Shown piece by piece: positions 11,738-34,846 of a stretch of DNA of 64,000 nt. The DNA comes from Cellvibrio sp. UBA7661 (GTDB taxonomy: Bacteria; Pseudomonadota; Gammaproteobacteria; Pseudomonadales; Cellvibrionaceae). The position numbers and the translations under genes were made by a program. Numbering within the stretch: position 1 is the stretch's first letter; every line of letters begins with the position of its first letter. The stretch covers positions 8,560 to 72,559 of the forward strand of contig NZ_DLHT01000018.1 of NCBI RefSeq assembly GCF_002483365.1, given 5' to 3'. Below the pieces are notes generated by a model. That model was given only the letters and a program-made list of their open reading frames with translations. It did not search any database and was not told where the DNA came from.

Positions 11738-14242
11738 ATGTCTTTCAATACAGCGTTAAGCGGAATTCGTGCAGCTAATACTGATCTGCAAGTGACCGGT
11801 AATAATATCGCCAACGCCAGTACCGTTGGTTTTAAATCGTCACGCGCTGAATTTGGCGATGTATATACGAGCACTTTATTGGGTGGTGGTTCAAATACTG
11901 CGGGTAGTGGTGTGAATATCCAAAATATTCGCCAACAATTTACGCAAGGTAATTTGAAATTTACCCAAAATGAATTGGACTTGTCGGTTAATGGTGAAGG
12001 ATTTTTTGTCGTTGAAAAAAACGGTGAGCGTTTGTATACCCGTGCAGGCACATTCGGGTTGGATAAAAATGGTTACATCGTGAATGGAACCGGCGCGTTA
12101 TTGCAAGGTTTTGCTGCAGATCCCGATGGCAATGTGAGTGGAATATTAAGTGACTTGCGTGTCGATGTAAGTTCGCAAGACCCACGCCAGACTACGGGTG
12201 TATTTGCCTCTTACAATTTGGATTCCAATGAATTGGTATTGGAGACAACAGGACAACGATTTTCTACTAATGGAACTGGAATTGGTAATGCATCACTCGG
12301 TTTGAAACAGCCTTTAACATCAACCATCGATATTGCTACTGCTGTTGCTACACCGGTTTCCCCTATAGTAATCCAATCTCCAACTGCAGGCCCACCAGCT
12401 ATTGCTGCTACTGTGTTGCAGCTATCTCGTACTGCTCCGGGAGGAAGTGCTCAGACTCTGAATATTACAATTTCCCCCGGTTCATATAACAATCTGACTG
12501 CTGTTGCAAATGAAATCAACAATCAGAATTTCAGCAGCCCGGTTCCTCTTAATGTTCAAGCATTTGTTGATACTGATGGGCGTTTGAAAATTCGGGATTT
12601 ATCTGCAGGTGTTGCTTCTCAGTTGAATATTACAGCTGTCGATCCTGATGGTGCTGGCCCTCTTGTAGTCCCTACTAATGGACTCACTACTGCTGTATCG
12701 GCAATCACACCTGCGAATATTACTGAGGGTGAGGCTGCGGCTAACAATAAGTACGCATCACATACTTTGGTAATTCAAGGTCCAGGAACTTCTGCGCCAG
12801 TCACTTACATTAGTAAATATGGTGCAGGTGCAGATGTAACCGCATCGGAGTTAAACTCGCTTGCTGGAATTAGCGCAACGGCACGTACAACAGCAACAAT
12901 TTTAAGAGAAATACCTGCCGTTCCGGCAGTTCCTGGGCCAGCTGCTCCGGCAATTCCGTTTACAAATAGTACAGGTACTTTCACATTAAATGGAGTTGTT
13001 CTGTCATCTGATACATCTGCAACAATGGATGATCTTGCGAAAGAAATTAATAGTCTCAGCAAATCTACTCTATTTGGAATTACTGCGAGCGTTAACGAAA
13101 CAACTGGCGATCTTGAAGTGGTTTCTGCAACCGGGCGTGATTTGGACTTCTCATTTGGAACTACAGGAGATGCAGTTGCGATTGTTGGTAGCCAAGGTGA
13201 GTTACAACAATTAGATACAAATGCGGATCCAGCGCTTGTCAATAGTGCGATTAAAGTGGGGGGAGTGATTACAGTAACAATGCAGGAAGGATATTCGATT
13301 ACCAACAGCACACTCACTACTCCTATTGTTGCTGGTTCAGGCGTTATGTTTGGCGCAATTGGTGATCCGACTTTCTTTACTCCTGTGCCGATTAACGCAT
13401 TTGATCCCAACGATCAAAAAACATTTAACCACGCAACGACTACACCTGTGTATGACAGCCTGGGAAATGTTCATTCAATGCGTCAATATTTTGTGAAGCA
13501 AGCTTACGATCCAGCTGATCCAACAACGTCGCCTAACCATTGGAAAATGTATGTGCAAATTGATGGTCAAAACGTAGGTGATCCCGATCCAACTTTGCCA
13601 TCACCAGACAATATCGCGCCGACTATGGCGTCGTTTGATGTGCACTTCACACCTGAAGGTACTATCAATGCGTCCATGACAGATGCGATCCTTATTTCTA
13701 ACTGGACTCCACTTGGCGAAGATGGACAACCCGTTGGTGCACTGGGGCCGTTGAATGTATTGCAGGGCGGGACTATACCCGTAGCTGAGCCACCAGCCAG
13801 TTCTAATTTTTTGATTGATCTTGAAGGCAGCACCCAATTTGGTAGCGTGTTTTCAGTAGAAGAGTTGGATCAAAATGGTTACGCCACTGGCCGTTTGGCA
13901 GGTTTGGATGTGAGCAATACCGGTATTGTGTTTGCCCGTTTCACTAACGGTGAAGCACAAGTATTAGGGCAGGTGGCCCTGGCTAACTTTGCCAGTGTGG
14001 ATGGTTTGAAACCAACAGGCGATACCATGTGGGCACAGACATTTGAATCGGGTGAGGCGATTGTGGGCGCTCCCGGCTCATCCCAACTGGGGAATGTGGT
14101 GGCTGGTGCGGTGGAAGAATCGAACGTGGATCTGTCGGAGCAATTGGTTAACCTGATTATTGCCCAACGCAACTACCAGGCAAACGCCAAAACCATTGAA
14201 ACCGCGAACGCCACCACCCAAACCATTATCAACTTACGATAA
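11738..14242 (+). CDS. flgE: flagellar hook protein FlgE, enlarged (834 aa)
   Basis: Canonical N-terminus (MSFNTALSGIRAANTDLQVTGNNIANASTVGFK) and C-terminus (VDLSEQLVNLIIAQRNYQANAKTIETANA). Between them lies an insert of about 380 aa (roughly aa 170-552). Confidence 0.9.
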   Translation: MSFNTALSGIRAANTDLQVTGNNIANASTVGFKSSRAEFGDVYTSTLLGGGSNTAGSGVNIQNIRQQFTQGNLKFTQNELDLSVNGEGFFVVEKNGERLYTRAGTFGLDKNGYIVNGTGALLQGFAADPDGNVSGILSDLRVDVSSQDPRQTTGVFASYNLDSNELVLETTGQRFSTNGTGIGNASLGLKQPLTSTIDIATAVATPVSPIVIQSPTAGPPAIAATVLQLSRTAPGGSAQTLNITISPGSYNNLTAVANEINNQNFSSPVPLNVQAFVDTDGRLKIRDLSAGVASQLNITAVDPDGAGPLVVPTNGLTTAVSAITPANITEGEAAANNKYASHTLVIQGPGTSAPVTYISKYGAGADVTASELNSLAGISATARTTATILREIPAVPAVPGPAAPAIPFTNSTGTFTLNGVVLSSDTSATMDDLAKEINSLSKSTLFGITASVNETTGDLEVVSATGRDLDFSFGTTGDAVAIVGSQGELQQLDTNADPALVNSAIKVGGVITVTMQEGYSITNSTLTTPIVAGSGVMFGAIGDPTFFTPVPINAFDPNDQKTFNHATTTPVYDSLGNVHSMRQYFVKQAYDPADPTTSPNHWKMYVQIDGQNVGDPDPTLPSPDNIAPTMASFDVHFTPEGTINASMTDAILISNWTPLGEDGQPVGALGPLNVLQGGTIPVAEPPASSNFLIDLEGSTQFGSVFSVEELDQNGYATGRLAGLDVSNTGIVFARFTNGEAQVLGQVALANFASVDGLKPTGDTMWAQTFESGEAIVGAPGSSQLGNVVAGAVEESNVDLSEQLVNLIIAQRNYQANAKTIETANATTQTIINLR

Positions 14243-14262
14243 TAAAATCACCTGATTACACA

Positions 14263-14298
14263 GCGGCAAAGGGCGGAAGCTCTTTGCCGCTTTCTATT
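14263..14298 (+). terminator. rho-independent terminator after flgE
   Basis: GCGGCAAAG-loop-CTTTGCCGC followed by TTTCTATT. Confidence 0.65.
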
Positions 14299-14373
14299 GG
14301 GGTTTCATTTGCTTTGCTAACCCTATCAAAATAAAGTCTTTGTAATTCAGTTGCTTAAGTGTTATCCAAACAT

Positions 14374-14388
14374 TGGCACTGCTCTTGC
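14374..14388 (+). promoter_or_regulatory. sigma-54 promoter of flgFGHIJK(L)
   Basis: TGGCAC-TGCTC-TTGCA is an exact -24/-12 match, 84 nt upstream of the flgF start. Confidence 0.8.
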
Positions 14389-14471
14389 AAAATCTCCAGT
14401 AATGGCAAATCCGCCAAAAAACTAGCGGCATTTTTATTCCTTATAAAGCTGCTAGCACTGGAGATACTATC

Positions 14472-15215
14472 GTGGATAAAGCACTTTTTATCGCAATGAC
14501 CGGTGCCAAGCACAACATGCTGGCGCAGGCCAATCGCGCCAATAATCTGGCTAATTTAAGCACCACCGGATTTCGTGCTGACTTTGAACAGTCGCGCAGC
14601 ATGGGTGTGTATTACGGCGATGGTCAGCCAACCCGCGCTTACGCCATGACGGAATCCCCCCGCGCTGATTTCACGCCTGGCTCAATGATTGCCACCAACA
14701 ACCCGCTCGACGTTGCGATACAGGGCAATGGTTTTATCGCCGTGCAATCACCCGATGGCACAGAGGCTTATACCCGTGCCGGCAACATGGCTGTGGATGC
14801 AACCGGCATGTTGCGCACTGCCAATGGTCTGCCGGTATTAGGCGCTGGCGGGCCAATCAATATTCCCGAAAATGAAAAAGTCCAGATTGGTGCCGACGGC
14901 ATTATTTCCATTATCGGCCAAGGGCAAGGGCCTGAGGCGATGGTACAAGTCGGGCAAATCAAATTAGTGAATCCCGATATTCAAAATATTGAAAAAGGTG
15001 ATGACGGTTTATTTCGTCAGCGCGATGGTGAAATTGCATTACCTGCAGTGGAAGTGACCTTGCGCAGCGGCATGCTGGAAAGCAGTAACGTCAATGCGAT
15101 CGAAGAATTTACGCAAATTCTTAGTCTCGCACGCCAATATGAAATGCAAGTCAAGGTGATGAAATCGGCGGAAGAAAATTCCGCTGCGTCTGCCCAGTTA
15201 TTGCAAATGTCGTAA
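14472..15215 (+). CDS. flgF: flagellar proximal rod protein FlgF
   Basis: 247 aa with a GTG start. Contains NNLANLSTTGFRADF...LESSNVNAIEEFTQILSLARQYEMQVK. Confidence 0.9.
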   Translation: MDKALFIAMTGAKHNMLAQANRANNLANLSTTGFRADFEQSRSMGVYYGDGQPTRAYAMTESPRADFTPGSMIATNNPLDVAIQGNGFIAVQSPDGTEAYTRAGNMAVDATGMLRTANGLPVLGAGGPINIPENEKVQIGADGIISIIGQGQGPEAMVQVGQIKLVNPDIQNIEKGDDGLFRQRDGEIALPAVEVTLRSGMLESSNVNAIEEFTQILSLARQYEMQVKVMKSAEENSAASAQLLQMS

Positions 15216-15262
15216 TTTTTAATGCGTTGTTTATTTAACGCATTTAACCAGAGGAATAGATC

Positions 15263-16048
15263 ATGCACGCCGCACTCTATGTCAGCAAAACCGGTTTGTC
15301 CGCACAAGATCGCCAGCTCACTACTATTTCCAACAACCTGGCAAACACCAGCACTATTGGTTTTAAACGTGACCGCGCAATTTTTGAAGATTTGCTGTAT
15401 CAAAACCAACGCCAACCTGGCGCGCAGCAAACGCAAGAAACGGAATTGCCTTCAGGTTTGCAATTGGGTGCCGGTGTGCGTGTAGTGGCAACACAAAAAG
15501 AATTTACCCAGGGCAATTTGCAAGTAACAGAGCAGTCGCTTGATGTCGCAATTGATGGCCACGGTTTTTTACAAGTACTGCAACCCGACGGCACTATCGC
15601 TTACACACGCAATGGCCAATTGCAAATCAATGGTGAAGGCCAACTTGTGAATGCAGATGGTTATTTACTGGAGCCTGCGATTATTGTTCCCGAAGGTGCC
15701 AACAAAATTACCATTGGCGCAAACGGTACCGTTAATGCGTACACACCAGGCCAGGTTGATCCACAACAGCTAGGCGATATCACTCTGGTTGATTTTATAA
15801 ACCATTCCGGTTTGCAGCCCATTGGCGGCAACTTGTTTGTGGAAACCGTTGCCAGTGGAAACCCGATTCAGGGAACGCCCGGTGAAAATGGTTTGGGCGT
15901 AATAAAGCAAGGTATGTTGGAAAACTCCAACGTGGATATTGTTGAGGAGATGGTCAACATGATCACCACCCAGCGCGCTTACGAGATGAACTCCAAAGTC
16001 GTTTCCACTGCAGACCAAATGCTGCAATACATCACCCAAAATCTTTAA
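15263..16048 (+). CDS. flgG: flagellar distal rod protein FlgG
   Basis: 261 aa. Contains ISNNLANTSTIGFKRDRAIFEDLLYQ...LENSNVDIVEEMVNMITTQRAYEMNSK. Confidence 0.95.
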   Translation: MHAALYVSKTGLSAQDRQLTTISNNLANTSTIGFKRDRAIFEDLLYQNQRQPGAQQTQETELPSGLQLGAGVRVVATQKEFTQGNLQVTEQSLDVAIDGHGFLQVLQPDGTIAYTRNGQLQINGEGQLVNADGYLLEPAIIVPEGANKITIGANGTVNAYTPGQVDPQQLGDITLVDFINHSGLQPIGGNLFVETVASGNPIQGTPGENGLGVIKQGMLENSNVDIVEEMVNMITTQRAYEMNSKVVSTADQMLQYITQNL

Positions 16049-16063
16049 GTGAGTGATTCAATC

Positions 16064-16783
16064 ATGCGCACTTTTTATATTGGTAAGCATCGTTTATTGG
16101 GATTGTTTGTATTGAAGTCGCTTGCATTAGCGATAGTCGCAATATCTCTCAGCGGTTGCTTTACCAACAAAAAGCCAATGGCAGATGATCCTGCCTATGC
16201 ACCCACAGTGGCAGCCAATATGCCAGTTCCGCAGCGTACAGAAGGCTCTTTATATCAAGACACTTACGGTTTGAATTTATTCAATGACCGCAAAGCGCAT
16301 TTTGTGGGCGATGTTATTACTGTGACCTTAAGTGAGCGTACTGTATCACGTAAATCATCGGGTGTTACTACCAGTAAAAATAGCGGTGTTGATTTTAATG
16401 CGGGTCCTTTGTTAGGTGCTAATCCCACAATCAAGGGGCGGGAGTTAACAACAACACTTGAGCAAGAAAGAACATTTGATGGCAGTGCCGATGCAGATCA
16501 AAGCAATAGTTTGCAAGGCAATATCACAGTGACTGTCGCTGAAATTTTGCCAAACGGTAATTTGATTGTGCGTGGTGAAAAATGGATCACATTAAATCGT
16601 GGCGATGAATTTATTCGCATCAGCGGAATTGTACGGCCCGATGACATCGCACCTGATAACACCATTGTGTCTACCCGTTTGGCGAATGCAAAAATTTCTT
16701 ACAGCGGTTCAGGCGAATTGGCTAGCACACAGCAAATGGGCTGGTTATCGCGTTTCTTTAATAGCGATCTGTGGCCTTTATAA
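16064..16783 (+). CDS. flgH: flagellar L-ring lipoprotein FlgH
   Basis: Lipobox LSGC after a signal peptide, and the FlgH core (GDVITVTLSERT...ITVTVAEILPNGNLIVRGEKW). A GTG at 16049 is an alternative start. Confidence 0.9.
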   Translation: MRTFYIGKHRLLGLFVLKSLALAIVAISLSGCFTNKKPMADDPAYAPTVAANMPVPQRTEGSLYQDTYGLNLFNDRKAHFVGDVITVTLSERTVSRKSSGVTTSKNSGVDFNAGPLLGANPTIKGRELTTTLEQERTFDGSADADQSNSLQGNITVTVAEILPNGNLIVRGEKWITLNRGDEFIRISGIVRPDDIAPDNTIVSTRLANAKISYSGSGELASTQQMGWLSRFFNSDLWPL

Positions 16784-16819
16784 ATAAGCCCGCTGTAACT
16801 TTTCTATAGAGGTATTTTT

Positions 16820-17923
16820 ATGCGTAGTGTTTATTGTTTAGTACTTGGCATCGCATTGGTTTTCAGTAGTGCAGCCCAAGCGGAACGCATTAAAGATATC
16901 GCCAGCGTTGCCGGTGTGCGTGCCAACCAATTGGTGGGTTATGGTTTAGTTGTCGGATTGGATGGAACCGGTGACCAAACAACGCAATCGCCTTTTACGG
17001 TTCAGTCGTTCAACAGCATGCTCAAGCAATTTGGTATCACCGTACCGGAAGGTGCGCGTATGCAAATGAAAAACGTCGCGGCGGTGATGATTCAGGCAGA
17101 ACTGCCTGCGTTTGCAAAACCAGGGCAAACCCTTGATGTCACCGTCTCGTCTATTAGTAATGCAAAAAGTTTGCGCGGTGGCAGTTTATTAGTGACTCCC
17201 CTAAAAGGCCTTGATGGAAAAGTCTATGCCGTAGCTCAGGGTAATTTAGTGGTGGGTGGGCTGAGTGCATCGGGTAATGATGGTTCAAAAATTACCGTGA
17301 ATATTCCTAGTGCGGGCCGTATTCCCAGCGGTGCCATTGTGGAGCGCATGGTGGAAACCAATTTCGCCGCAGGTCAGCCTATTATTTTTAATCTGCATCG
17401 CGCGGATTTCACCACTGCCAATGCTTTGGCAAAAAGTATTAACGCCATGTTAGGGCCTGATGTGGCGCGCCCAATGGATGCTGTTTCTATTGTTGTGAAT
17501 TCACCTGCGAATCCTGCGCAGCGCGTTGATTTTATTTCGATACTGGAAAATATTGAAGTTACACCAGGTGAGGAGGTTGCCAAAGTCATCATCAATTCCC
17601 GTACGGGCACTATCGTCGTTGGAAAAAATGTGCGTGTTTCACCGGTTGCAGTAACTCACGGTAGCTTGACAGTATCGGTAGCAGAAAGTTTAACCGTGAG
17701 CCAACCCAATGCCTTGGCCGGTGGGCAAACTGTTGTTGTGCCCAGCAGCAATGTGCAAGCCAATGAAGAAAATAATCCCATGTTTAAATTTGCACCCGGT
17801 GCCAACCTGGATGACATAGTGCGTTCGGTTAACAACGTAGGTGCGTCACCCAGTGATTTAATGGCCATTTTGGAAGCACTTAAACAATCCGGTGCGCTAA
17901 AAGCAGAACTAGTGGTGATCTAA
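16820..17923 (+). CDS. flgI: flagellar P-ring protein FlgI
   Basis: 367 aa. A signal peptide is followed by [31 protein letters not shown]. Confidence 0.95.
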
Positions 17924-19135
17924 ATGTTACCTATCGACAGCAGTACAGGCATATCGCAAATTAAGGATTCCTATTTGGATCCTAATTCGCTGAATTCTGT
18001 TAAAGCAATGGGGCGCGATAAAGACCCGCAAGCATTAAAAGAAGTAGCGAAAAAATTTGAAGCGATGTTTGTGCAGCAAATGTTGAAAACCATGCGTGAA
18101 GCCAATGAGGCTTTTAGCGAAGGTAATTATTTTGATAGCCAAACCACACGCTTCCATCGTGATATGCTCGATCAGCAAATGGTGCTCAATTTAACCAGCG
18201 GTGCGGGTATTGGTTTGGCGGATCACTTTTATCAGCAAATGCTGAAAAATTATGGCGGCAATATGAAAGCGCCAGAGAATTCATCAAATACTCATGAGCT
18301 TGGCGATCTGTCCGATATTGTTACGCATCAGTCACTGCCACAAGGTGATTCTGCACGTGTAGATGCAAAAAATACAGAAGGTGATGTTGGTGATTCTATT
18401 GATGTATTAGGTGATTGGATCAACGATTTTATGCGCATGAGCGATAACTCGAATGTGCAATCTGTGTTGAGCGGCGAAACGGATAAGGATGCTGAAAATC
18501 CGGTTATTGTTGCACCGTTCATCAATTATGCAGCAATGCCCGCCTATTTGAACAAAGCCAAGTCTGCTGAAATTCGCGTAGGGCAGAAAGGTAGTATTAG
18601 TGATACCCAGGAAAATTTTGTCATGCTGCTAAAGCCTCATGCTGAAAAGGCAGCGGCAGAACTGAATGTTAATCCGGATGTATTGATTGCCCAGGTTGCA
18701 TTGGAAACCGGCTGGGGAAAACACGTTATTCATGATAACCAAGGCAACAACAGTTTTAACCTGTTCAATATTAAAGCGAATACTCAATGGCAAGGCGATA
18801 AGGTGAATGTTTCTACACTTGAATATCGCAATGGTATAGCGGCAAATGAAAAAGCGGATTTCCGTAAATATACCGATTATGCCGAAAGCTTTTCAGATTA
18901 CGTGAGATTGATGAAAAATAATCCGCGTTACGACGATGTATTGGCCGCAGGAACCGATTCAAAAAAATATGCGGAAGCACTACAAGCAGCAGGTTATGCA
19001 ACAGACCCGGAATACGCCAAAAAAATTAAACGTTTGTTGAATAGCGATGCGATTAAATCAGTGGGGGATATCACAGGCACTGTGCTTTCCTCTCTCAATA
19101 TGGCAGCGAAAGCTGGCCGCACATTTGTGGAGTAA
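17924..19135 (+). CDS. flgJ: flagellar rod-assembly protein/peptidoglycan hydrolase FlgJ
   Basis: 403 aa. N-terminal rod-binding motif (KEVAKKFEAMFVQQMLKTMREA) and C-terminal glucosaminidase domain (AQVALETGWGKHVI...FNLFNIKA). Confidence 0.9.
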   Translation: MLPIDSSTGISQIKDSYLDPNSLNSVKAMGRDKDPQALKEVAKKFEAMFVQQMLKTMREANEAFSEGNYFDSQTTRFHRDMLDQQMVLNLTSGAGIGLADHFYQQMLKNYGGNMKAPENSSNTHELGDLSDIVTHQSLPQGDSARVDAKNTEGDVGDSIDVLGDWINDFMRMSDNSNVQSVLSGETDKDAENPVIVAPFINYAAMPAYLNKAKSAEIRVGQKGSISDTQENFVMLLKPHAEKAAAELNVNPDVLIAQVALETGWGKHVIHDNQGNNSFNLFNIKANTQWQGDKVNVSTLEYRNGIAANEKADFRKYTDYAESFSDYVRLMKNNPRYDDVLAAGTDSKKYAEALQAAGYATDPEYAKKIKRLLNSDAIKSVGDITGTVLSSLNMAAKAGRTFVE

Positions 19136-19138
19136 GTC

Positions 19139-21904
19139 ATGAGCGGTATTCTCTCTAACGCCGTATCCGGCTTGCAGGCCAGCCAAAATGCACTGCGTAC
19201 TGCAGGGCATAATATTTCCAACGCCAACACTGCTGGCTATTCCCGTCAGGAAGTAAATTACGTTACTCGCCCTGAACAAAATGCGGGTGGTGCCGGATTT
19301 ATTGGTTCCGGTGTTACCACGGCTTCTATTGAGCGTGTGGTCAACGAATTTGTGACTGCCCAGTTGCGTTTGGATACCTCTACATTTAATCAGTTAAATA
19401 AATTCAACGCCAATATTGGCAAAATGGATAAGTTGCTTGCAGACACCAGCACCGGCTTGTCCGGTGCATTGCAATCCTTTTTTTCTGCAATGCAAAATGG
19501 TGCGAATGATCCTGCCTCTACTCCTGGTCGTCAGTTAATTGTGACGGAAGCGGAAAGCATGAGCATCCGCTTCAATAATCTCAATCAGCGCTTTACTGAT
19601 ATCGAAAAAAGTGTAAATGGTGAAATCCGCACGGTGACCGAGCAAATTAATTCGCTAGCACAATCGGTTGCATCACTTAACCAATCGATTGGTGAGTTGC
19701 GTGCATCCGGCAGTGGCAATGCCCCGAATGATTTGCTGGATAAACGCGATGAAGCCTTGCGAAAATTATCTGAACTGGTATCGATTCAAGTCGTTAATCA
19801 AGCTGATGGCGATGTCAATGTATTTATTGGCAATGGCCAGCCTTTGGTTATTGGTATTAAATCCAGCACGTTTAGCGTAACGAATGATGGAAAGATCCAG
19901 TTAACGGGCAACAATTCCAATGTTGACGTTACCTCTCAAATTACTGGTGGACAACTGGGTGGTTTGGTAGGGTTCCGTGAGAGCGTGCTGTCACCTTCGC
20001 TGAACGAGTTGGGGCGCATTGCATTGACAATGGCGGATCAGTTCAACACTTTGCAGCAAGAAGGTATTGATCTGGATGGTGATTACGGCCAGCGTATGTT
20101 TGGTGATATCAATGATCCGGTACTGGCTGCGAACCGTGTCGCACACGGTAATAATGCATTGCCTTTTGATCGGATTATTTCGGTCACTATTGATGACACT
20201 AATCAATTAAGCACCAGTGACTATTTGTTTGAAATTGTTCCTGGCTCCAGTAATTATTTGGTTACCCGGTTATCCGATAAAACCGTGGTGGAGCAGGGTA
20301 CTTTGTCTGGCGCTTACCCCACCAGCATTTCATTCGATGGCGTGAGCGTTAATTTAACCAGCGGCTCTTTTCAGGGAGGCGACAAATTCACAATCCAGCC
20401 AACTAAAAATGGTTCGCGCGATATTCGTGCTGAAATAAAACGTCCGGAAGATTTGGCATTCGCATCGCCTGTGCGTACAGCAAGCAATACCAGTAATGCT
20501 GGCAGTGGCCTTATCAGTGCTGGTGAAGTATTAAGTTTGGTCGATGCTAACGGCAATCGTTTGCCTGCGTTTTCAAAACCGGGTGAATTATCTCCACCCA
20601 TTTTGATTCGCTTTACATCTGAAACAACCTATGAAGTTCTGGACAATAGTGATCCGACCAATCCCAAACATTTAGTGCCTGCACTGCGTGAACAGATTTT
20701 TATTCCCGGTAGTAGCAATAATATTTTTACCGGCGACATTGGTGAGCATATTGTTGTAGGAAATGGCAGCCGGCTGGGGTTGCCGGAAGGTCGCTCACCG
20801 CAGGTGGTATCGGCACTAAGTGATCCACTTGCCAAAAACGGTTATTTGGCAGAGCAGCTGCATTTCACCATTAAAGATCCTGTTACCGGTTCAGTCAGTA
20901 CGAAAATGCTCACGACAGTTCCCGGTGCAACGGCAATGGAAACCGCTGCACAGATCAGTTCTGTACAAGGTGTGTCGGCACGTGCATTTACTACGGCAAC
21001 CTTAACGGATTTGAATCTGGCAACGGCCGATCTTGCGCCGCCCACACAACTGTATGTGAATGGACAAGCGCTTATTCAATATGATCCCAGCAACACGGCT
21101 TTTCATGCCGATGTGCCTGATATTGCTGTTGATGGTGAGGTTGCTTTTAATAATTACCTCGCACAGCAAATTAACAACAATCCCAATTTAACCAGTTTGG
21201 GAATTCGTGCGCAAAGTAGTACTAATCCGATTACCGGTGCACCGGAATTAAAATTGGTTGCGTCATCCGGTGTGGATTTGGATATCCGTTTGAAATCCTC
21301 ATCCAATAGTAGTGTTGATGTGAATGACAGTAATGGAAATCCTAATGTTCGTTTAGTGGGGGCCGATACCGGGGCAGGTGAATTGCAAGGTATCGTAGTG
21401 GGTGGAAGAATTGATATTACGATGGCAGATGGCATTAGCCTCGGAACAGTTCCCACCGACAGCCCATTATTTGGCGATAGCGCACGCGATACTTTTGCAG
21501 GCTCTTCTTTTGTTGGCTATCAAGTTGCGATCAGCGGACAACCTAAAGCGGGCGATACATTCACAGTTGGTTTTAATACCAACGGAACGAATGACAACCG
21601 CAATGCATTGGCGATGGTTGCGCTTGAATCGCAAGGTATGATGCAAAACGGGACTCTGACACTTGAAGATGGTTATGGCAAGTTAGTTGAAGAAGTCGGT
21701 ACCAAAAGCAGTCTTTCAAAAATCAATACTGAAGCAAGTAAAAGCTTGTTGGAACAAACCCAAACCATGCGCGACAGTATTTCCGGCGTTAACCTGGATG
21801 AAGAAGCGGCAGACTTAATTAAGTTCCAGCAGCTTTATCAAGCGAATGCCCAAGTGATTTCTGTTGTGCGTGAATTGTTTGATACTCTTCTTAGTTCACT
21901 TTAA
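19139..21904 (+). CDS. flgK: hook-filament junction protein FlgK, enlarged (921 aa)
   Basis: N-terminus MSGILSNAVSGLQASQNALRTAGHNISNANTAGYSRQ and C-terminus GVNLDEEAADLIKFQQLYQANAQVISV are canonical FlgK. The central region is much longer than usual. Confidence 0.9.
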   Translation: MSGILSNAVSGLQASQNALRTAGHNISNANTAGYSRQEVNYVTRPEQNAGGAGFIGSGVTTASIERVVNEFVTAQLRLDTSTFNQLNKFNANIGKMDKLLADTSTGLSGALQSFFSAMQNGANDPASTPGRQLIVTEAESMSIRFNNLNQRFTDIEKSVNGEIRTVTEQINSLAQSVASLNQSIGELRASGSGNAPNDLLDKRDEALRKLSELVSIQVVNQADGDVNVFIGNGQPLVIGIKSSTFSVTNDGKIQLTGNNSNVDVTSQITGGQLGGLVGFRESVLSPSLNELGRIALTMADQFNTLQQEGIDLDGDYGQRMFGDINDPVLAANRVAHGNNALPFDRIISVTIDDTNQLSTSDYLFEIVPGSSNYLVTRLSDKTVVEQGTLSGAYPTSISFDGVSVNLTSGSFQGGDKFTIQPTKNGSRDIRAEIKRPEDLAFASPVRTASNTSNAGSGLISAGEVLSLVDANGNRLPAFSKPGELSPPILIRFTSETTYEVLDNSDPTNPKHLVPALREQIFIPGSSNNIFTGDIGEHIVVGNGSRLGLPEGRSPQVVSALSDPLAKNGYLAEQLHFTIKDPVTGSVSTKMLTTVPGATAMETAAQISSVQGVSARAFTTATLTDLNLATADLAPPTQLYVNGQALIQYDPSNTAFHADVPDIAVDGEVAFNNYLAQQINNNPNLTSLGIRAQSSTNPITGAPELKLVASSGVDLDIRLKSSSNSSVDVNDSNGNPNVRLVGADTGAGELQGIVVGGRIDITMADGISLGTVPTDSPLFGDSARDTFAGSSFVGYQVAISGQPKAGDTFTVGFNTNGTNDNRNALAMVALESQGMMQNGTLTLEDGYGKLVEEVGTKSSLSKINTEASKSLLEQTQTMRDSISGVNLDEEAADLIKFQQLYQANAQVISVVRELFDTLLSSL

Positions 21905-22071: not shown

Positions 22072-22129
22072 ATTGGTAGACTGTAAGTAATCAATGAGGC
22101 AAACATTTGCCGCTTTAGAGGAGTTGGTC

Positions 22130-24289: not shown

Positions 24290-24616
24290 ATGGATATCAA
24301 CCCTTTGCTTGACCCTTTAGTTCGTGCGCTCAGTCAATCAAAAGCTCTTTTGTCTCTTGCCCAAGCGGGTGATTGGGAATCGTTTGAAACCTTGGTGCAA
24401 CAGCGCCAGCAGGGTCTTTTATCGCTTAGCGACCACGAGTACCTGCAATCATTAGCGCAAGCGGATCTTGAAACTGAAGCGGCAGGATTAATTGAAGAAA
24501 TTCAGTTGATCAACAAAGAATTATCTTCTCTGGCGGAAGCAAACCGGGATAATGCCGCGTCAGAATTGCGTCAAAATGGAAGAGCAGCAAAAGCAATTGA
24601 TGCGTATGGCGGCTAA
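24290..24616 (+). CDS. FliT-like flagellar chaperone (tentative)
   Basis: 108 aa and all-helical. LSLAQAGDWESFETLVQQRQQ resembles the FliT signature (A..G.W..L..LE..R). The gene sits inside the flagellar locus. It does not look like FliS. Confidence 0.5.
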   Translation: MDINPLLDPLVRALSQSKALLSLAQAGDWESFETLVQQRQQGLLSLSDHEYLQSLAQADLETEAAGLIEEIQLINKELSSLAEANRDNAASELRQNGRAAKAIDAYGG

Positions 24617-26925: not shown

Positions 26926-26939
26926 GTGAGGAACAGATT

Positions 26940-27326
26940 ATGAATGACATCACTAAAGTTGCTTCGAATCCGGTACAAGCGAAAGCTTCGCCGGTTTCGT
27001 CGTTGCCTGGCGCAAGAGGTCAAAAAACCGGCAATGATTTGCCGCCTGCCGCAGAAGCGGCAAGATCTTTACCTAAAGATCCTGTCAATTCTCAGGCGGT
27101 GCAAGAGCGTGTTCAGGCAGCCGTGGCTCAAATGAATGAGTATATTCAGTCAACCCAGCGCGATTTAAACTTCTCATATGATCCTGATTCAGGTGAGACA
27201 GTTGTGAAAGTTTTGGATCGCACAACGCAAGAAGTTATTCGTCAAATCCCTGATGAAATTTTCTTGCGGCTGGCGCAAAGCCACACCCCGGATGAGCCTG
27301 GTCAATTATTCAGTGCACAGGCATAA
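26940..27326 (+). CDS. flaG: flagellar protein FlaG
   Basis: 128 aa. Contains LNFSYDPDSGETVVKVLDRTTQEVIRQIPDEIFLRLAQ, the FlaG family signature. Confidence 0.85.
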   Translation: MNDITKVASNPVQAKASPVSSLPGARGQKTGNDLPPAAEAARSLPKDPVNSQAVQERVQAAVAQMNEYIQSTQRDLNFSYDPDSGETVVKVLDRTTQEVIRQIPDEIFLRLAQSHTPDEPGQLFSAQA

Positions 27327-27771: not shown

Positions 27772-29811
27772 ATGCCTCTAGTCATTAACACCAATGTCGC
27801 TTCCTTGAATTCACAGCGTCAATTGATGAGCTCAGGAAATGCGCTCGATCGGGCAAGCGAACGCTTGTCCTCTGGCCAACGTATTAACTCTGCGAAAGAC
27901 GATGCTGCGGGTCTGGCTATTTCCAACCGCATGACATCGCAAATCCGCGGTCTTGACCAAGCAATCCGCAATGCGAACGATGGTGTATCACTGATACAAA
28001 CTGCGGAAGGTGCCTTGCAGGAATCGACCAATATTTTGCAGCGTATGCGCGAACTGTCCATTCAGTCTGCGAACGGAATTTATTCCGATGCTGACCGCAA
28101 AACACTGGATGCGGAAGTACAGCAATTGATTCTGGAATTGGATCGTATTGCGACGTCTACATCCTTCAACGGCCAAAAATTATTGGATGGTTCGCTTGGA
28201 AAAGTGGATCTACAAGTCGGTTCCGATGCAGGCCAAACCATCACCATGAAAATCCCCGCAATGGATGCCAAAACCTTGGGTATGGGCTTTGTGGGTGTGG
28301 ATATGTTGGGTGGCGAGATTGATTTGGCTGCATTGCAAATCGACGAAAACGATATTCTCATTAATGGTCAATCTGTTGCTAAATCGCTGGAGAGTTTTGA
28401 TGGCTCCACCGAAACGATGGATAAATTGATTGAACTGATTAATAAAAATGTGTTGGGCATTAATGCTTCTACTTATGCTCAGGCAACGGCGACTGGCGCT
28501 GGTACAGGTGTACTGGAAAGTGGCCAAATATTTGAGATTGCGATTACCAAACTGGATGGCTCACAAACCACTATCCAGGTCACCAATACGCAAAACCTGG
28601 ATGAGTTGGTAGATAAAATTAACACTGAAAGTGGTGGCTTGTTGAGTGCCTCGGTTGGTGAGAACAGTAAGTTGAGTATTGCAGGTATTAATGTCGCAAG
28701 CTTTACGGTCACGGACGGAAGCGTGCCGGCCGGCTCTGCTGGCGGTAACATTGCAGGTACTTATTCTGGCCGCCTGGTGCTTGAATCAGAACATGGTGAT
28801 CCAATTACTATCACTCGTGGATCGACCGGTGACTTGGCGCAACTGGATGCTTTGGGCTTCCGTGAAAATACCAATCCGGGAAATATTGAGGGTATAGGAA
28901 TTGATACTCCCAATGTGGCCTGGAATGTGGGTGATCTCAGCATCAACGGTGTGATCATCTCCAATAAAAATACTGACTCTTTAGCGGGTAAAGTTGCGGC
29001 AATTAACGCTGCGCAAGAAGATACCGGCGTTACTGCTGAAGCATTTGTGTCTGCAACCCTGGATTTTTCTACCACCGATATATCAACCATCACTGGCACG
29101 TTTGAGCTGAATGGTGTCGTGATTGATATGGATGCTCCGGCAGCGGTTACCAGCGTTGCGGACATTGTGGCCAGATTTAATGCCGCTACCGATTCAACCG
29201 GTGTTTCAGCGAGCTTGCTAGGTACCCGTGTCGTTCTGGAAGGTTCTGCTTCATCGCTCACCTTCAGAGATGGTGCCGGTTCAGTAGCAACCGCATTGGG
29301 CGGGGCGTTGCTGGCTCATTCAGACTTCAACAACAACCCGGTGCCTGCCGCTGTTGCTGATGGCGATAGCGTGAATGGTGGTATCAAGCTGAGCAGTGAA
29401 AATGGTTCTCCTATTAGCGTGAAGTTGGGTGCTAATGCTGATCCTGATACCTTGGGGATTTTGGAATCCAACGTAACTGCCGAGGGAGCATTCGGTACCG
29501 CGATCGCCTCTATCAGTATTGATTCGGTCGAAGGTGCACAAAAAGCGTTGGGCGTTATTGATAACGCGTTGACTACGATCAACGATGCCCGTTCACAGTT
29601 GGGTGCGATCAACAACCGTTTGGACTTCACTATGTCCAACCTGGCAAACGTGTCTGAAAAGACATCGGCCTCGCGTTCGCGCATTGTGGATGCAGACTTT
29701 GCAGCAGAAACCGCTGCATTGAGCCGTGCGCAAGTCTTGCAACAGGCAGCCCAAGCGATGTTGGCGCAAGCCAATGCGCGCCCTGAGCAGGTATTGCAGT
29801 TACTCAGATAA
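27772..29811 (+). CDS. fliC: flagellin, copy 2 (679 aa)
   Basis: Collinear paralogue of copy 1 with near-identical termini ([18 protein letters not shown]..., ...[23 protein letters not shown]). The central region is diverged. Confidence 0.95.
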
Positions 29812-29855
29812 GTTGGGTTTTCGATACATAGAAAACGACAACGCCTTCCGGCACA

Positions 29856-29891
29856 TAAAAAACCGTCGCAACTTGTTGCGACGGTTTTTTT
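29856..29891 (+). terminator. rho-independent terminator after fliC2
   Basis: AAAAAACCGTCGCAAC-ttg-TTGCGACGGTTTTTTT is a perfect long stem with a U-tract. Confidence 0.9.
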
Positions 29892-29960
29892 ATGGCTTTT
29901 TTCAGCCAGTTTCAAGTAGCTCGGCTAGTCTTAAGAAAGTGAAAAACCGGATTCCATTGC

Positions 29961-32618
29961 ATGATCACAATTAGGCGTATGCCAGCAGCACTGTGGGTGT
30001 TGCGTATTCTTTTACTGGCGCTGGTGTATTTCATTGCCGGACGTTTGTCGTTGCTTTTAGCCATTCCTCCTGGTTTTGTCACCGGATTGTTTCTCCCCTT
30101 GGGCATTGCGTTAGGTGCTGTGCTGATTTGGGGATATTCAATGGGAGTTGGGGTTTTCCTTGGCTCTTTGTTACTTAATATTTCTGTCAGCAATGCCCCT
30201 GACTTGTCCGGGCCGACTGTTTTACTTGCGGCTGAAATTGCCAGTGGCAGTGTGCTGGCAAGTCTTGCTGGCCGTGCGCTGATCCGCCGTTTTGTGGGAT
30301 TCCCTGATAGCTTGACCGATGAGCGGAAAATTTTTGCGTTTTTTGCGTTCGGAGGACCTGTTGCTACCAGTCTGAGTGCAAGTGTAGGTGTATTGGCATT
30401 GTGGGTTAATGATGTCATCCAAACCAAACAAATACTTCACAGTTGGTGGACATGGTGGGTGGGCGACACCATTGGTGTATTAATCGCTACACCACTGATG
30501 TGTGTATTGTTTGCGGAGCCGCAACATTTTTGGCGGGGCAGGCGCCTTACTGTAGGTGTGCCGCTGGTTGTGAGTAGTTTGATCGTGGTTGCAGTGTTTG
30601 TTATGTCGAGTAATAACGAACACAAAAAACTTGCAGATCAATTTCAACAACAGGCACGTTTGGTTGATGATACGGTTCAATCCAGCATGTCGGGTGTTGT
30701 TTATACATTAGCGACATTGCGCGGATTATTTTCAGCCTCAGAAGAGGTTACCCGTGAAGAGTTTTCAGCATTTATCAATGATGTGCTTGTCGATAAACAG
30801 GGGGTATCTGGATTCTCATGGAACCTGCGAGTGATGCATCGCGATCGTATTGCGTTTGAAAATAAAATGCGCGCTGAAGGCATGAAAAATTTTTATGTTA
30901 ATGAGAAAAGTGCAAGTGATGCCTTCATTATTGCGCCTGAACAGGAAGAATACGTTGTTATTACTTATATAGAACCATGGACAGAAAATGCGTCTATTTT
31001 AGGTTTTAATGTGGCGTCTGATCCCACTCGCGCAATTACCGTCAACCGTGCACGGGATAGTGGCTCATATGCAATGACACAGCCAGTACAGTTGCTACAA
31101 GATGTTCAGCTATCACCCGGTGTGATTGTGTATTTTCCTGTGTACGACATCATCAAGCGTTTGGATACAGTAGCTGAACGTAGGGAGCATATCCTTGGTT
31201 ATGCAACGGCGATTGTGCGCATTCATGATTTAATTAATTCGACATTGACTCCATTTTCATCGGGTGATTTTCATCTTGATATGGTCGATGTAACAGAGCC
31301 TGATAAACCACACATATTTTATCGTGTAGGTGAAGCCCATGTTCCGCCTTATGCACAGGAGTTTATCTATCGGAAAAACATCGCTCTTGGGGGAAGAATA
31401 CTGCAGCTGACGATTAGTCCAACAGAAAAATTTTTAAATGAGCATGTCAGTTTACAATCCTGGTTTGTGTTGGCTGGGGGGTTGTTATTTTGTAGTTTGT
31501 TGGGTGGTTTCTTATTGCTGATTAGCGGCAGAACACAGCACATTACCAATTTGGTAGAGCAGCGCACTAAAGAGCTGGCTGCTATTTTAGAGAATGCGGT
31601 CGAATCTATTTTAGTGGCGGATGAGCACGGCATTATTCAAAAGGCAAATCAGGCGGCAGCAAAACTATTTCAATATCCTCTGGAGCAATTTACCAGCTTG
31701 CATATTGCGGATCTCATTCCGATGTTAGGCGATGCATTTGCATCTACTAATACACAAGCAATAGCAAGCGAATTACGTGAAAGCTTCGGACGTTGTAGCA
31801 ACGGCAAAGAAGTGGCGATTGAATTGAGTGTTAGTCCTGTAGACATTCACGATCGTCAATTTTTTACTTTTATCATTCATGATGCGACTGAGCGGCGAAA
31901 AGTAGAGCGATTAAAAAGTGAATTTATTTCCACGGTCAGCCATGAATTGCGTACACCGCTAACCTCGATTAAGGGCGCTTTAAGTATTGTCACCAGTGGC
32001 ACCATGGGCGAGTTGCCCAGCAACATAAATAATTTATTGGGAATTGCGAGTAGTAATGCGGAAAGGTTATCCCGTTTGGTGAACGATATTCTGGATATCG
32101 AAAAATTGGAATTCGGTAATGTGCAATTAACCCTCAAGCCACACAGGGTGTATCCACTGCTACAACAGTCGATTGAACAAAATTTTGGTTACGGAGCACG
32201 CTACGGGGTGAAGTTACAGTTAGATGTACCTTCGGAGTCAGCTATGACTGCAGTAGCCAATATGGATGCAGATCGGTTCTTGCAAATCATGGCTAATCTG
32301 ATCTCCAATGCGGTGAAGTTTTCTTTTCTGGACGGTGTCGTGAAGATTGTTTTGGCCACTGAGGGAGAGAAAATAAGAATCTCTGTTATCGATGAAGGGC
32401 AGGGTATGGCTGATGATTTTCGTCAGCATGTTTTCAAAAAATTTGCCCAGGCTGATTCGTCAAATACCCGGCGGCGCGATGGTACCGGGTTGGGGTTAAG
32501 TATTACCAAGGTTATGATTGAACGAATGGGTGGGAAAATTGATTACCGTTCTGCTTTAGGTAAAGGAACCACATTTTTCTTTACTTTGCCTCTGCATGTA
32601 GGCGATGTAGGCGAATAG
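29961..32618 (+). CDS. sensor histidine kinase with MASE1, CHASE, PAS, HisKA and HATPase domains
   Basis: 885 aa. The domains, in order, are: a multi-TM MASE1-like N-terminus (LVYFIAGRLSLLLAIPPGFVTGLFLPLGIALGAV); a CHASE-like extracytoplasmic domain (ITYIEPWTENASILGFNVASDP...YFPVY); a PAS domain; the H box STVSHELRTPLTSI; and the N, G1 and G2 boxes (NLISNAVKF, DEGQGM, GTGLGLSI). Confidence 0.85.
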   Translation: MITIRRMPAALWVLRILLLALVYFIAGRLSLLLAIPPGFVTGLFLPLGIALGAVLIWGYSMGVGVFLGSLLLNISVSNAPDLSGPTVLLAAEIASGSVLASLAGRALIRRFVGFPDSLTDERKIFAFFAFGGPVATSLSASVGVLALWVNDVIQTKQILHSWWTWWVGDTIGVLIATPLMCVLFAEPQHFWRGRRLTVGVPLVVSSLIVVAVFVMSSNNEHKKLADQFQQQARLVDDTVQSSMSGVVYTLATLRGLFSASEEVTREEFSAFINDVLVDKQGVSGFSWNLRVMHRDRIAFENKMRAEGMKNFYVNEKSASDAFIIAPEQEEYVVITYIEPWTENASILGFNVASDPTRAITVNRARDSGSYAMTQPVQLLQDVQLSPGVIVYFPVYDIIKRLDTVAERREHILGYATAIVRIHDLINSTLTPFSSGDFHLDMVDVTEPDKPHIFYRVGEAHVPPYAQEFIYRKNIALGGRILQLTISPTEKFLNEHVSLQSWFVLAGGLLFCSLLGGFLLLISGRTQHITNLVEQRTKELAAILENAVESILVADEHGIIQKANQAAAKLFQYPLEQFTSLHIADLIPMLGDAFASTNTQAIASELRESFGRCSNGKEVAIELSVSPVDIHDRQFFTFIIHDATERRKVERLKSEFISTVSHELRTPLTSIKGALSIVTSGTMGELPSNINNLLGIASSNAERLSRLVNDILDIEKLEFGNVQLTLKPHRVYPLLQQSIEQNFGYGARYGVKLQLDVPSESAMTAVANMDADRFLQIMANLISNAVKFSFLDGVVKIVLATEGEKIRISVIDEGQGMADDFRQHVFKKFAQADSSNTRRRDGTGLGLSITKVMIERMGGKIDYRSALGKGTTFFFTLPLHVGDVGE

Positions 32619-32721
32619 CCTGATTCAGAGAGCCTTGCAGCATAAAAGGTACATGAATTGGCGTAGTTTGTGCTCTATTGGATATAAGGGAAATCTTTCC
32701 TTAAAAAGCGGCAAAACCGGC

Positions 32722-32748
32722 TAAAGTTTGCCCGTGCGCTGCCGCTAA
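32722..32748 (+). promoter_or_regulatory. sigma-28 (FliA) promoter of fliD
   Basis: TAAAGTTT-N11-GCCGCTAA is a near-perfect consensus match, 38 nt upstream of the fliD ATG. Confidence 0.75.
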
Positions 32749-32785
32749 CTTATGGCAAGCGGTAATTTTTGGCGTGGAGGTACCT

Positions 32786-34846
32786 ATGGTGAACAGTACA
32801 TCGAGCACAACCAACAACAATGGCGCGACAGGCTCCAGCATTATCAGTGCTCTGGGGACCGGTTCGGGCATTGACTCGAATAAGCTGGCTGACCAGTTGA
32901 CCGAAACTGCCCATATCGTGCAGACCAACAGGCTGACCTCCAAGAAAACCTTATTGGAAACCCAAATTTCCGATTACGGCCTGCTGCGTAGCTCTCTATC
33001 CAAACTTGAAACCGCTGCCGCCGCTTTGGGGAGCTCCGATACATTTAACGCCAAATCCTTATCGGTGCCCGATACCAATCTCCTCAGTATTACCAAGCTT
33101 GATGCGAAAGCCGCTGCGGGTGGTTATCAAATCAAAGTCGAGCAAACTGCACAGTCCCAATCGCTAAGTTCCGGTACTTTCAGCTCCATGACTGACCCTA
33201 TCGGTAAAGGTACCTTGGTCATCCGTTTGGGTGAATGGAATGCAGGTTTAAATGATTTTGAAGTTGATGCCAGCAAGAGTGCCGGTGGAACAATCACCAT
33301 TGATGACGGCAACAACTCCCTGATTGGCCTGCGTGATGCAATTAACAAAGCGAACTTTGGTGTCGCTGCAAGTATTGTGAGCGATGGTGGCTCTTACAAA
33401 CTGTTACTGACGTCCAAATCGGGTGCCAAAAATGAAATAGAAATCACCGCAACAGAAGATCCGGGTGCACTTGGCCTTGCAAGTTTTGATTTTAATGAAA
33501 CCACGCGTAATTTGACCCAACAACAAGAAGGGTTGGATGCAAAAGTGCGTGTGAATGGCTTATTGGTAAGCCGCGAATCCAACCAAATCAAAGATGTTGT
33601 TGATGGGTTGGAGTTTGATTTATTTGGTGCTTCGCTGACTGAAACTATCAGTATTTCGATTAATGAAGACAAATCTGTTGCAGAAAAAACCATTCGTGAT
33701 TTTGTAACGGCATACAACACGTTTAAAACAGAAGTTGAAAAATTAGTGGGTTTTGATGCAGAGCTGAAAGATTACGGCAGTTTGAAAACCGATCCTCTCG
33801 CAAAAAATTTGATGCAAGGTATCCGCAATTTTCTCTCCAGTTCGATCCCGGGTTTAAGCGATGGTTTTACTGCGCTTTCCAGTCTGGGTATCCGCACCGA
33901 GAGAGATGGCTCACTGAAAATTGTTGAAAATGAAGAAAATACAGGTTTTCGCGCAGCAATCGATACCCATTTCGATAAGGTGCGGGATTTGTTTGTGCCC
34001 AAGGTATCGGCATCCGTAACCAATATTGAAGTTTCCAAATACACAGCGCAAAGTAAACCTGGCACCTATGATGTTGTGATTACCCAGCAACCTTCAAAAG
34101 GAAAACTGACCGGTGCAGCAATAGGTGTCGCCTTTCCGCTAGACACTACCGGAAAGGATTACAACTTCAAACTTAAATTGGATGGCATTGAAACGGGCTT
34201 GATTACTTTGCCCGCCGGAAAAACTTATACAACTGAAGGTGAGTTGGCTGCTGAAATCCAAAGTTTGATCAATTTGGACACTAATTTAAAAACAGTGAAG
34301 TCAACGCTTGCGGTGAGTATTGAAGCAGGAAAGTTGGTGTTTACCTCTAATTCTTACGGCAGCTCCAGTAAAGTGGAATTTACAGCGATATCAACTGATA
34401 TGGCGGATTTGGGAATTAGTCTTGGTGCAGGTGTGTCGGGCACCGATGTTGGTGGAACTGTGGCCGGAAGAGCTGCGTTTGGTTATGGCAATGTGTTGCT
34501 GCCTGCATTGGGGACTGATGCAGAAGGCTTGAGCATGACAATTCAACCAGGTGCAACGGGCGGCACGGTTACATTTTCGCGCGGTTTTGCTGGTGGTTTA
34601 ACCAACATTGTGAATGATTACCTTAAATCTTCCGGTGTCATTAAAGAGCGCGAAGAGAATATCAGCAAAGAAATTAAAGGTGTCGAGGAAGATCAAACTG
34701 ATTTGACTCGTCGCAGTGATGCCTATAGAGCGCGCTTGATGGCGCAGTTCCAGGCAATGGAAAGCATTGTCCGCTCACTCAACTCTACTGGTGATTTTTT
34801 GGATGGTATTCTCGATCGCTTACCTTTCACAGCCAAAAATAGTTAA
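32786..34846 (+). CDS. fliD: flagellar filament cap protein FliD, enlarged (about 686 aa)
   Basis: The ATG at 32786 sits 5 nt after a GGAGG SD. FliD N-terminal (GSGIDSNKLADQL...QISDYGLLRSSLSKL) and C-terminal (YRARLMAQFQAMESIVRSLNSTGDFL) motifs are present. Confidence 0.9.
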   Translation: MVNSTSSTTNNNGATGSSIISALGTGSGIDSNKLADQLTETAHIVQTNRLTSKKTLLETQISDYGLLRSSLSKLETAAAALGSSDTFNAKSLSVPDTNLLSITKLDAKAAAGGYQIKVEQTAQSQSLSSGTFSSMTDPIGKGTLVIRLGEWNAGLNDFEVDASKSAGGTITIDDGNNSLIGLRDAINKANFGVAASIVSDGGSYKLLLTSKSGAKNEIEITATEDPGALGLASFDFNETTRNLTQQQEGLDAKVRVNGLLVSRESNQIKDVVDGLEFDLFGASLTETISISINEDKSVAEKTIRDFVTAYNTFKTEVEKLVGFDAELKDYGSLKTDPLAKNLMQGIRNFLSSSIPGLSDGFTALSSLGIRTERDGSLKIVENEENTGFRAAIDTHFDKVRDLFVPKVSASVTNIEVSKYTAQSKPGTYDVVITQQPSKGKLTGAAIGVAFPLDTTGKDYNFKLKLDGIETGLITLPAGKTYTTEGELAAEIQSLINLDTNLKTVKSTLAVSIEAGKLVFTSNSYGSSSKVEFTAISTDMADLGISLGAGVSGTDVGGTVAGRAAFGYGNVLLPALGTDAEGLSMTIQPGATGGTVTFSRGFAGGLTNIVNDYLKSSGVIKEREENISKEIKGVEEDQTDLTRRSDAYRARLMAQFQAMESIVRSLNSTGDFLDGILDRLPFTAKNS

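Follow-up and report, generated by a model that had tools for sequence, protein, structure and literature searches.

Enlargement of the outward-facing axial proteins of the Cellvibrio polar flagellum, probably by insertion and duplication of surface domains

Gene cluster and protein sizes

The DNA analysed here, called the window, is a stretch of 64,000 nucleotides from Cellvibrio sp. UBA7661 (contig NZ_DLHT01000018.1, positions 8,560 to 72,559). Cellvibrio species are degraders of plant cell-wall polysaccharides. According to the open reading frames (ORFs) and their Pfam identities, the window carries a polar flagellar gene cluster of standard type, with the gene order flgNMA, cheVR, flgB-L, fliT-like, fliC1, flaG, fliC2, sensor kinase, and fliD (Table 1). 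The subject of this work is the size of its axial proteins. The original prediction, made from the letters of the window, stated that the hook protein FlgE, the junction proteins FlgK and FlgL, two flagellins, and the cap protein FliD are all enlarged, and that the rod proteins are not. The ORFs and Pfam bear out the six large sizes, and the ordinary sizes of FlgB, FlgC, FlgF, and FlgG are confirmed. The lengths of FlgL and FliD are counted from internal ATG codons; the ORFs open at 22094 and 32774 and comprise 639 and 690 amino acids (aa), respectively. All peptides that the prediction quoted are present in the proteins named, and the extra sequence lies between conserved termini, at outward-facing positions.

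Table 1. Features of the flagellar locus and its surroundings, in window coordinates
Feature	Length (aa)	Coordinates	Strand	Basis or remark
FlgB, proximal rod	133	10065-10466	+	Pfam; canonical size
FlgC, proximal rod	149	10524-10973	+	Pfam; canonical size
FlgD	233	10987-11688		
FlgE, hook protein	834	11738-14242	+	Pfam Flg_bb_rod, LlgE_F_G_D1, FlgE_D2, Flg_bbr_C, Flagellin_IN
FlgE insert, about residues 165-553	389	12230-13396	+	phmmer against a 434-aa polar FlgE
FlgE linker, residues 389-412		12902-12973		Pro/Ala-rich
FlgF, rod	247	14472-15215	+	Pfam; canonical size
FlgG, rod	261	15263-16048	+	Pfam; canonical size
FlgH, FlgI, FlgJ	244, 367, 403	16049-19135		FlgJ at 17924-19135 (+)
FlgK, first hook-filament junction protein	921	19139-21904	+	Pfam FlgK_D1, flgK_1st_1, Flg_bbr_C
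FlgK insert block, residues 559-786		20813-21496	+	paralogous to FlgE insert 329-546
FlgL, second junction protein	627	22130-24013	+	from ATG 22130; Pfam Flagellin_N, weak Flagellin_C
FlgL tandem repeat, residues 287-390 and 391-495 (627-aa numbering)	two units of about 104	22988-23614	+	hhalign
FliT-like	108	24290-24616		
FliC1, flagellin	675	24845-26872	+	Pfam Flagellin_N, Flagellin_C, Flagellin_IN
FlaG	128	26940-27326		
FliC2, flagellin	679	27772-29811	+	Pfam Flagellin_IN
Sensor histidine kinase, MASE1-CHASE-PAS-HisKA-HATPase	885	29961-32618	+	between fliC2 and fliD
FliD, filament cap	686	32786-34846	+	from ATG 32786; Pfam FliD_N, FliD_C
Canonical FliD D3 'IN' motif, residues 172-214 (690-aa numbering)		33287-33415	+	Flagellin_IN 29.9 bits on the excised segment; aligns with Salmonella IRDAINDADSGIAASIV
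FliD extra segment, residues 382-604	about 220	33932-34594	+	phmmer gap against Salmonella FliD, between Salmonella residues 360 and 389
Cytidylyltransferase, CTP_transf_3 (CMP-sugar synthetase-like)	229	35052-35741	+	immediately 3' of fliD
PAS-GGDEF-EAL protein		2501-4942	+	flanks the cluster
Hybrid histidine kinase with receiver domains		38760-40958	+	flanks the cluster
GGDEF protein		44814-45749	-	flanks the cluster

Structure of the enlarged proteins

The excess of FlgE is a single insertion. In phmmer, residues 5-164 and 554-834 align to residues 4-169 and 177-434 of a 434-aa polar FlgE, and 389 residues stand in place of a loop of about seven residues between positions 169 and 177. The insertion lies where the Pfam FlgE_D2 match begins, and the extra domains are thus located in the outermost core domain, D2. 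The AlphaFold2 (AF2) model, obtained with a 48-sequence alignment, gives the insert a predicted local distance difference test (pLDDT) score of about 70-96, and comprises three beta-beta-alpha-beta modules at residues 239-301, 342-388, and 413-473, the second and third being modules b and c. The top Foldseek matches of the insert are flagellin outer domains, including Helicobacter pylori FlaA (9ygu, E 9e-6) and the crystal structure of Pseudomonas aeruginosa FliC D2/D3 (8erm, E 1e-5, 220 columns, target TM-score 0.50). The matches of the FlgE model are flagellar proteins, with flagellin outer domains first and hook cores after them. In Cellvibrio alignments, mean identity to the window protein is 0.85-0.87 in the cores and 0.26-0.71 in the insert, a pattern that is expected of outward-facing domains. 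Within the insert, conservation is fairly high in modules b (0.71) and c (0.62).

A Pro/Ala-rich linker, REIPAVPAVPGPAAPAIPFTNS, joins modules b and c; its conservation is low, with an identity of 0.26, and the confidence of the model falls over residues 391-400.

FlgK is colinear with Salmonella FlgK over residues 1-445 (Salmonella 1-440). Its insert block matches FlgE 329-546 in hhalign with a probability of 97.7% and an E-value of 2e-12 over 197 columns, and by blastp the two blocks share 29% identity over 186 aa. The FlgE-FlgK pair of blocks recurs in eight of ten related loci, at 26-32% identity, and was seen in none of the loci of a second lineage from lake metagenomes, which is described below.

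Residues 1-328 of FliC1 match residues 1-325 of the b-type (PAO1-type) FliC of P. aeruginosa (5wk5) with an E-value of 2e-77. In the outer region of FliC1, residues 188-368 and 379-565 are homologous to each other and form two units of about 185 aa (hhalign E 2e-8), and the excised outer region had no match in a PDB sequence search. FliC2 is 52% identical to FliC1 over the insert. The window flagellins are Pseudomonas b-type flagellins in which a D2/D3-like outer unit has been duplicated.

The excess of FlgL over relatives of about 415 aa is the tandem 104-aa repeat, whose two units match each other with an hhalign E-value of 1.8e-18. The repeat is confidently folded in the AF2 model, with a pLDDT of about 90 and the order beta-beta-alpha-alpha-beta-beta-beta-alpha. 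A Foldseek search with the full FlgL model is dominated by the conserved core, and matches the FlgL of Legionella and Xanthomonas. Identity to the window protein in Cellvibrio alignments is 0.69-0.76 in the helical termini and 0.45-0.54 in the repeats. FlgL occurs in two size classes in Cellvibrio, of about 520-535 aa (529 aa in C. japonicus) and about 625-660 aa, and the gap between them is about one repeat. This suggests that the classes have one and two copies of the repeat, and that copy number is variable within the genus.

FliD residues 19-382 are colinear with residues 3-360 of Salmonella FliD in phmmer, and the extra segment follows. It has no sequence match in the PDB, and the part of it that was scanned contains nothing from Pfam. 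The peptide that the original prediction offered as an example of extra FliD sequence lies outside this segment; it aligns residue for residue with the D3 motif IRDAINDADSGIAASIV of the 467-aa Salmonella FliD, and is therefore canonical.

A shared Flagellin_IN-type module

The Flagellin_IN family is known from flagellins, hook proteins, and FliD. Against the Pfam gathering threshold of this family (PF07196), which is 22.7 bits, FlgE passes with 24.6 bits at residues 408-465, while a second FlgE module at residues 241-287 stays below it with 13.7 bits. FliC1 and FliC2 score 36.6 and 35.8 bits, with two stretches in each; when excised, segments a and b of FliC1 score 24.6 and 21.4 bits. FliD passes with its canonical D3 motif, for which the excised segment was needed, as the family is not listed in the Pfam scan of the whole protein. 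There was no match on either excised FlgK segment, even at E <= 10, on either FlgL repeat, or on the scanned FliD insert.

A regular expression for the motif core occurs ten times in the six proteins, compared to 1.6 +/- 1.4 times in shuffled sequences, and is absent from the other 11 proteins; the expression was composed after the data had been seen. A first hidden Markov model (HMM) of the module, seeded with five sequences, was rejected as too narrow, since it did not rank FlgK, FlgL, and FliD above FlgI or FlgD. A second HMM was iterated from the Pfam-supported stretches. It is dominated by FlgE and has no matches in a reversed database. In the window FlgE it matches residues 240-288 (9e-13) and 414-466 (8e-22), and among related proteins it matches 29 of 62 FlgE, 9 of 55 FlgK, 28 of 31 FliC, and one of seven FliD. 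No match was found to the rods, FlgL, or other genes. Profile comparison also relates FlgE 376-485 to FliC 417-505 (hhalign E 4.5e-6).

The inserts of FlgE, FlgK, and FliC are of common ancestry, and are of the Flagellin_IN or flagellin outer-domain type. The original prediction had all six proteins decorated with related modules. This stands for FlgE, FlgK, and FliC, whose blocks are homologous in hhalign. It does not stand for FliD, or for FlgL, where the proposed motif has no statistical support from Flagellin_IN or hhalign. The Flagellin_IN scan alone is passed by FlgE, both flagellins, and the FliD segment, and is failed by FlgK and FlgL. As judged from sequence profiles, the module is real and confined to externally exposed axial proteins, yet it does not unite all six.

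Enlargement in related bacteria

The FlgE homologs with 57-86% identity range from 782 to 836 aa, and the named ones belong to Cellvibrio (803 aa in C. japonicus, 816 aa in both C. fontiphilus and C. zantedeschiae). A search of genome contigs with FlgK gave eight loci, all from Cellvibrio/Cellvibrionaceae or close relatives, in which the gene order of the window is kept. They encode FlgE of 808-822 aa, FlgK of 932-935 aa, FlgL of 629-653 aa, and FliC of 578-704 aa, together with rods of canonical size. Cellvibrio FlgK orthologs as a whole have 923-935 aa. C. japonicus Ueda107 (CP000934.1) has FlgE of 803, FlgK of 923, FlgL of 529, FliC of 698 and 675, and FliD of 684 aa. The enlargement is genus-wide in Cellvibrio, occurs in genomes that have long been public, and is not peculiar to the genome of the window. 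It is typical of Cellvibrio and its relatives, and all Cellvibrio loci that were examined share it. No account of enlarged axial proteins in Cellvibrio came up in searches of the literature.

When FlgE was searched against 1.84 billion representative proteins, its relatives of canonical size (405-460 aa) aligned to residues 1-165 and 550-834 only. Relatives of 640-690 aa aligned from query residue ~330-400 onward. Many relatives are longer than the window protein, with 939, 951, 1030, 1060, 1180, 1222, 1307, 1329, 1330, 1478, and 1580 aa. The 1,330-aa protein comes from Ca. Pelagadaptatus aseana, of the family Cellvibrionaceae, and the other relative named by cluster look-up is Aestuariicella/Pseudomaricurvus. 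The idea that larger FlgE proteins merely have more IN modules was ruled out, since no more than two modules are detectable in any representative above 900 aa.

A wider survey covered 80 metagenome loci that were anchored on FlgG and carry no taxonomy. Loci whose FlgG is 68-97% identical to that of the window have a median FlgE of 802 aa (448-1,603), FlgK of 848-1,146 aa, and FlgL of 406-659 aa. Where FlgG is 57-63% identical, the medians are 447 aa for FlgE, 668 aa for FlgK, and 422 aa for FlgL. A separate lineage from lake metagenomes, with FlgG about 54% identical, has FlgE of 808-1,214 aa, FlgK of 886-1,037 aa, and FlgL of canonical size (306-308 aa). With few exceptions among the 80 loci, the rod proteins FlgF and FlgG have 242-265 aa.

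Some loci of the survey encode 'giant' hook proteins of 1,464-1,603 aa (L020:1897-6291 and L024:2913-7724, also P0132 and P0137), with FlgG 78-79% identical to that of the window. The FlgE genes encoding 1,464 and 1,603 aa were each found on several contigs, and are therefore not assembly artefacts. FlgK in these loci reaches 1,146 aa, but FlgL is ordinary, with 416 aa. The module HMM detects one Flagellin_IN-type module in the FlgE of L020 and L024, and most of the extra mass is something else. The lineage with FlgG of about 54% identity (L065-L070, L082, and L085-L088) has a short FlgJ of 107-169 aa, and fliD directly after flgL. Its FlgE and FlgK inserts have no BLAST similarity to each other, and the module HMM matches several of its FlgK proteins.

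Comparison with other flagella

The closest parallel is found in Campylobacter and Helicobacter, where hook, junction, and cap proteins are enlarged by outward-facing domains and the D0/D1 cores are kept (PMC5097172, PMC12221982). The additional D3 and D4 domains of C. jejuni FlgE bring the hook width from 180 to 280 A and make the hook more robust (PMC5097172). They branch from D2, as in the window protein (PMC5097172), and the lengths are alike, with 851 aa in C. jejuni and 834 aa in the window. In C. jejuni, FliD carries an additional domain, D4, and FlgL has a bulky D2 (PMC12221982), and Campylobacter FlgK has diverged in step with the hook (PMC5691160). That the FlgE insert is homologous to the D3/D4 domains of C. 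jejuni was rejected, as phmmer aligns the core alone to 5jxl and 5az4; query residues 567-834 align to 5jxl 611-850. C. jejuni FlgE was not among the Foldseek matches of the insert, where flagellin D2/D3 domains rank first. The host of the window is, unlike Campylobacter, a gammaproteobacterium of the order Cellvibrionales. According to the literature, extra FlgE domains D3/D4 occur only in Epsilonproteobacteria (PMC5097172), and the Cellvibrio case would thus be of independent origin. The trait parallels the epsilonproteobacterial one, and appears to have arisen independently and to be undescribed.

In Pseudomonas, the b-type flagellin of P. aeruginosa (5wk5, 8erm) is colinear with FliC1 through D0, D1, and D2/D3, and the FlgE insert is similar in fold to 8erm. 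The window flagellins differ from it by the second outer unit of about 185 aa, and have 675-679 aa compared to 488 aa. In the Pseudomonas-like loci sampled, no such module was seen in the hook or in FlgK, which have 406-456 and 656-688 aa, respectively.

The giant flagellins of Bermanella and Oleibacter, described by Thomson et al. in 2018, are a further case of marine gammaproteobacteria with expanded outer regions, some of them tandem repeats, and with thick filaments (PMC6248924). Their flagellins are longer than 1,000 aa, and the label of giant flagellin was rejected for the window proteins on length (675/679 aa). In the window, unlike in these bacteria, the largest relative growth is that of the hook, which is about twofold. 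A term search of the main text of PMC6248924 gave no occurrence of FlgK, FliD, or Cellvibrio, and the hook is named there just to separate flagellins from FlgE and FlgL.

Interpretation

The preferred reading is that domains were added to the surface of the axial proteins by insertion and duplication in the Cellvibrio lineage, where they would form a reinforcing outer shell. Taken as a whole, this is moderately probable. The outward-facing parts have grown by gain of self-folding domains, and the tube-building D0/D1 core and the rod proteins, which are located in the envelope, are unchanged. The routes differ between proteins: one 389-aa insertion in a D2 loop of FlgE, a paralog of about 230 aa of the distal FlgE insert in FlgK, a tandem repeat of 104 aa in FlgL that belongs to another sequence family, and a separate insertion of about 220 aa in FliD. 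The added domains may constitute an additional outer shell, and hook, junction, and filament would then be thicker. Extra contacts between subunits may make the flagellum stiffer and more stable, as D3/D4 do in the Campylobacter hook, and the homologous blocks of FlgE and FlgK could let the first junction ring extend the outer lattice of the hook. A thicker, reinforced flagellum may reasonably be inferred by analogy with Campylobacter, and the same holds for the 'continuous extra outer layer' of the original prediction.

The main rival is uncoordinated loop expansion. According to this explanation, the enlargements are independent events in insertion-tolerant loops, driven by drift or by pressure from phages, grazers, or antigen recognition, and the large size of all six proteins is an accident of the lineage. 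Several results fit it or weigh against a reinforcing shell. In relatives the sizes do not go together: an FlgE of 448 aa is found beside an FlgK of 848 aa, one of 1,464-1,603 aa beside an FlgL of 416 aa, and canonical FlgL beside the long hook proteins of the lake lineage. Such independent variation argues against one coordinated layer, and the single coordinated package of the original prediction does not hold among relatives. Over 30 loci, which are not phylogenetically independent, FlgL size is uncorrelated with that of FlgE (Spearman -0.20) or FlgK (0.19), and within the genus the two FlgL classes lie about one repeat apart. Within the proteins, conservation is lowest in the inserts. The additions in FlgL and FliD are unrelated to the other inserts: hhalign scores of the FlgL repeats against the inserts of FlgE, FlgK, FliC, and FliD are no better than those of reversed-sequence controls, and the FliD insert has no detectable relation to the FlgE, FlgK, and FliC modules. 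The window FlgK is not significant with Flagellin_IN or the module HMM, and is tied to the module by its profile-profile match to FlgE. Finally, AF2 confidence is low in the D0/D1 core of FlgE, and the model does not show how the insert is oriented with respect to the tube.

Other results are not expected from uncoordinated growth. In the same 30 loci, the size of FlgK is correlated with that of FlgE (Spearman 0.76). The paralogous block of the two proteins is kept over most loci of the clade, which indicates long-term retention. For parts of an insert, modules b and c of FlgE are fairly conserved, and the models predict well-folded inserts. Independent expansion of all six proteins is considered unlikely.

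It is quite improbable that the extra domains are mainly functional surfaces, such as adhesins or glycan-binding domains for substrates or scaffolds for flagellar glycosylation: the plant-polysaccharide-degrading lifestyle of Cellvibrio, the CTP_transf_3 gene directly 3' of fliD, and the enzymatic or adhesive roles reported for flagellin outer domains elsewhere (PMC7643111) are circumstantial, whereas Pfam finds no carbohydrate-binding, lectin, or enzyme family in any insert, the Foldseek matches of the FlgE model are flagellar, and the window is without a complete glycosylation island.

A broader form of the shell reading is put forward tentatively, and may well be wrong. Cellvibrionales and at least one other lineage from freshwater metagenomes would have evolved reinforced or 'armoured' hooks independently of the Epsilonproteobacteria, by means of flagellin-type domains in FlgE and FlgK, with one continuous lattice of related domains from the hook through the first junction ring to the filament. 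The relatives would then include an undescribed class of 'giant hook' proteins of 1,000-1,600 aa.

In the structural literature, extra FlgE domains are seen as particular to Campylobacter and related bacteria (PMC5097172), and the present findings would widen this view. The hook protein is of double size throughout a gammaproteobacterial genus, to which the tractable model C. japonicus belongs. This protein contains flagellin-like modules and shares a paralogous block with FlgK, and the hook proteins of uncultured relatives reach 1,600 aa. Cellvibrio would offer a second, independent system for the relation of outer domains to hook stiffness, the fit of the junction to a thicker hook, and the movement of domains between axial proteins. 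The significance is comparative and structural, and not that of a new mechanism.

Other genes of the locus

The window FlgJ has about 130 aa between its rod-binding domain (residues 55-105) and its glucosaminidase domain (residues 237-374), and is larger than the FlgJ of many related loci, which has 309-341 aa. A homolog of the sensor kinase lies 3' of fliC2 in five Cellvibrio loci (L001, L002, L004, L007, and L008; partial at the locus end). C. japonicus Ueda107 has no sensor kinase at this site, and its fliC2 is directly followed by fliD. No fliS was detected among the scanned ORFs adjoining fliD. The cytidylyltransferase gene beside fliD may be a hint of nonulosonic-acid glycosylation of flagellar proteins. 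The signalling genes that flank the cluster (Table 1) may point to control of motility by cyclic di-GMP.

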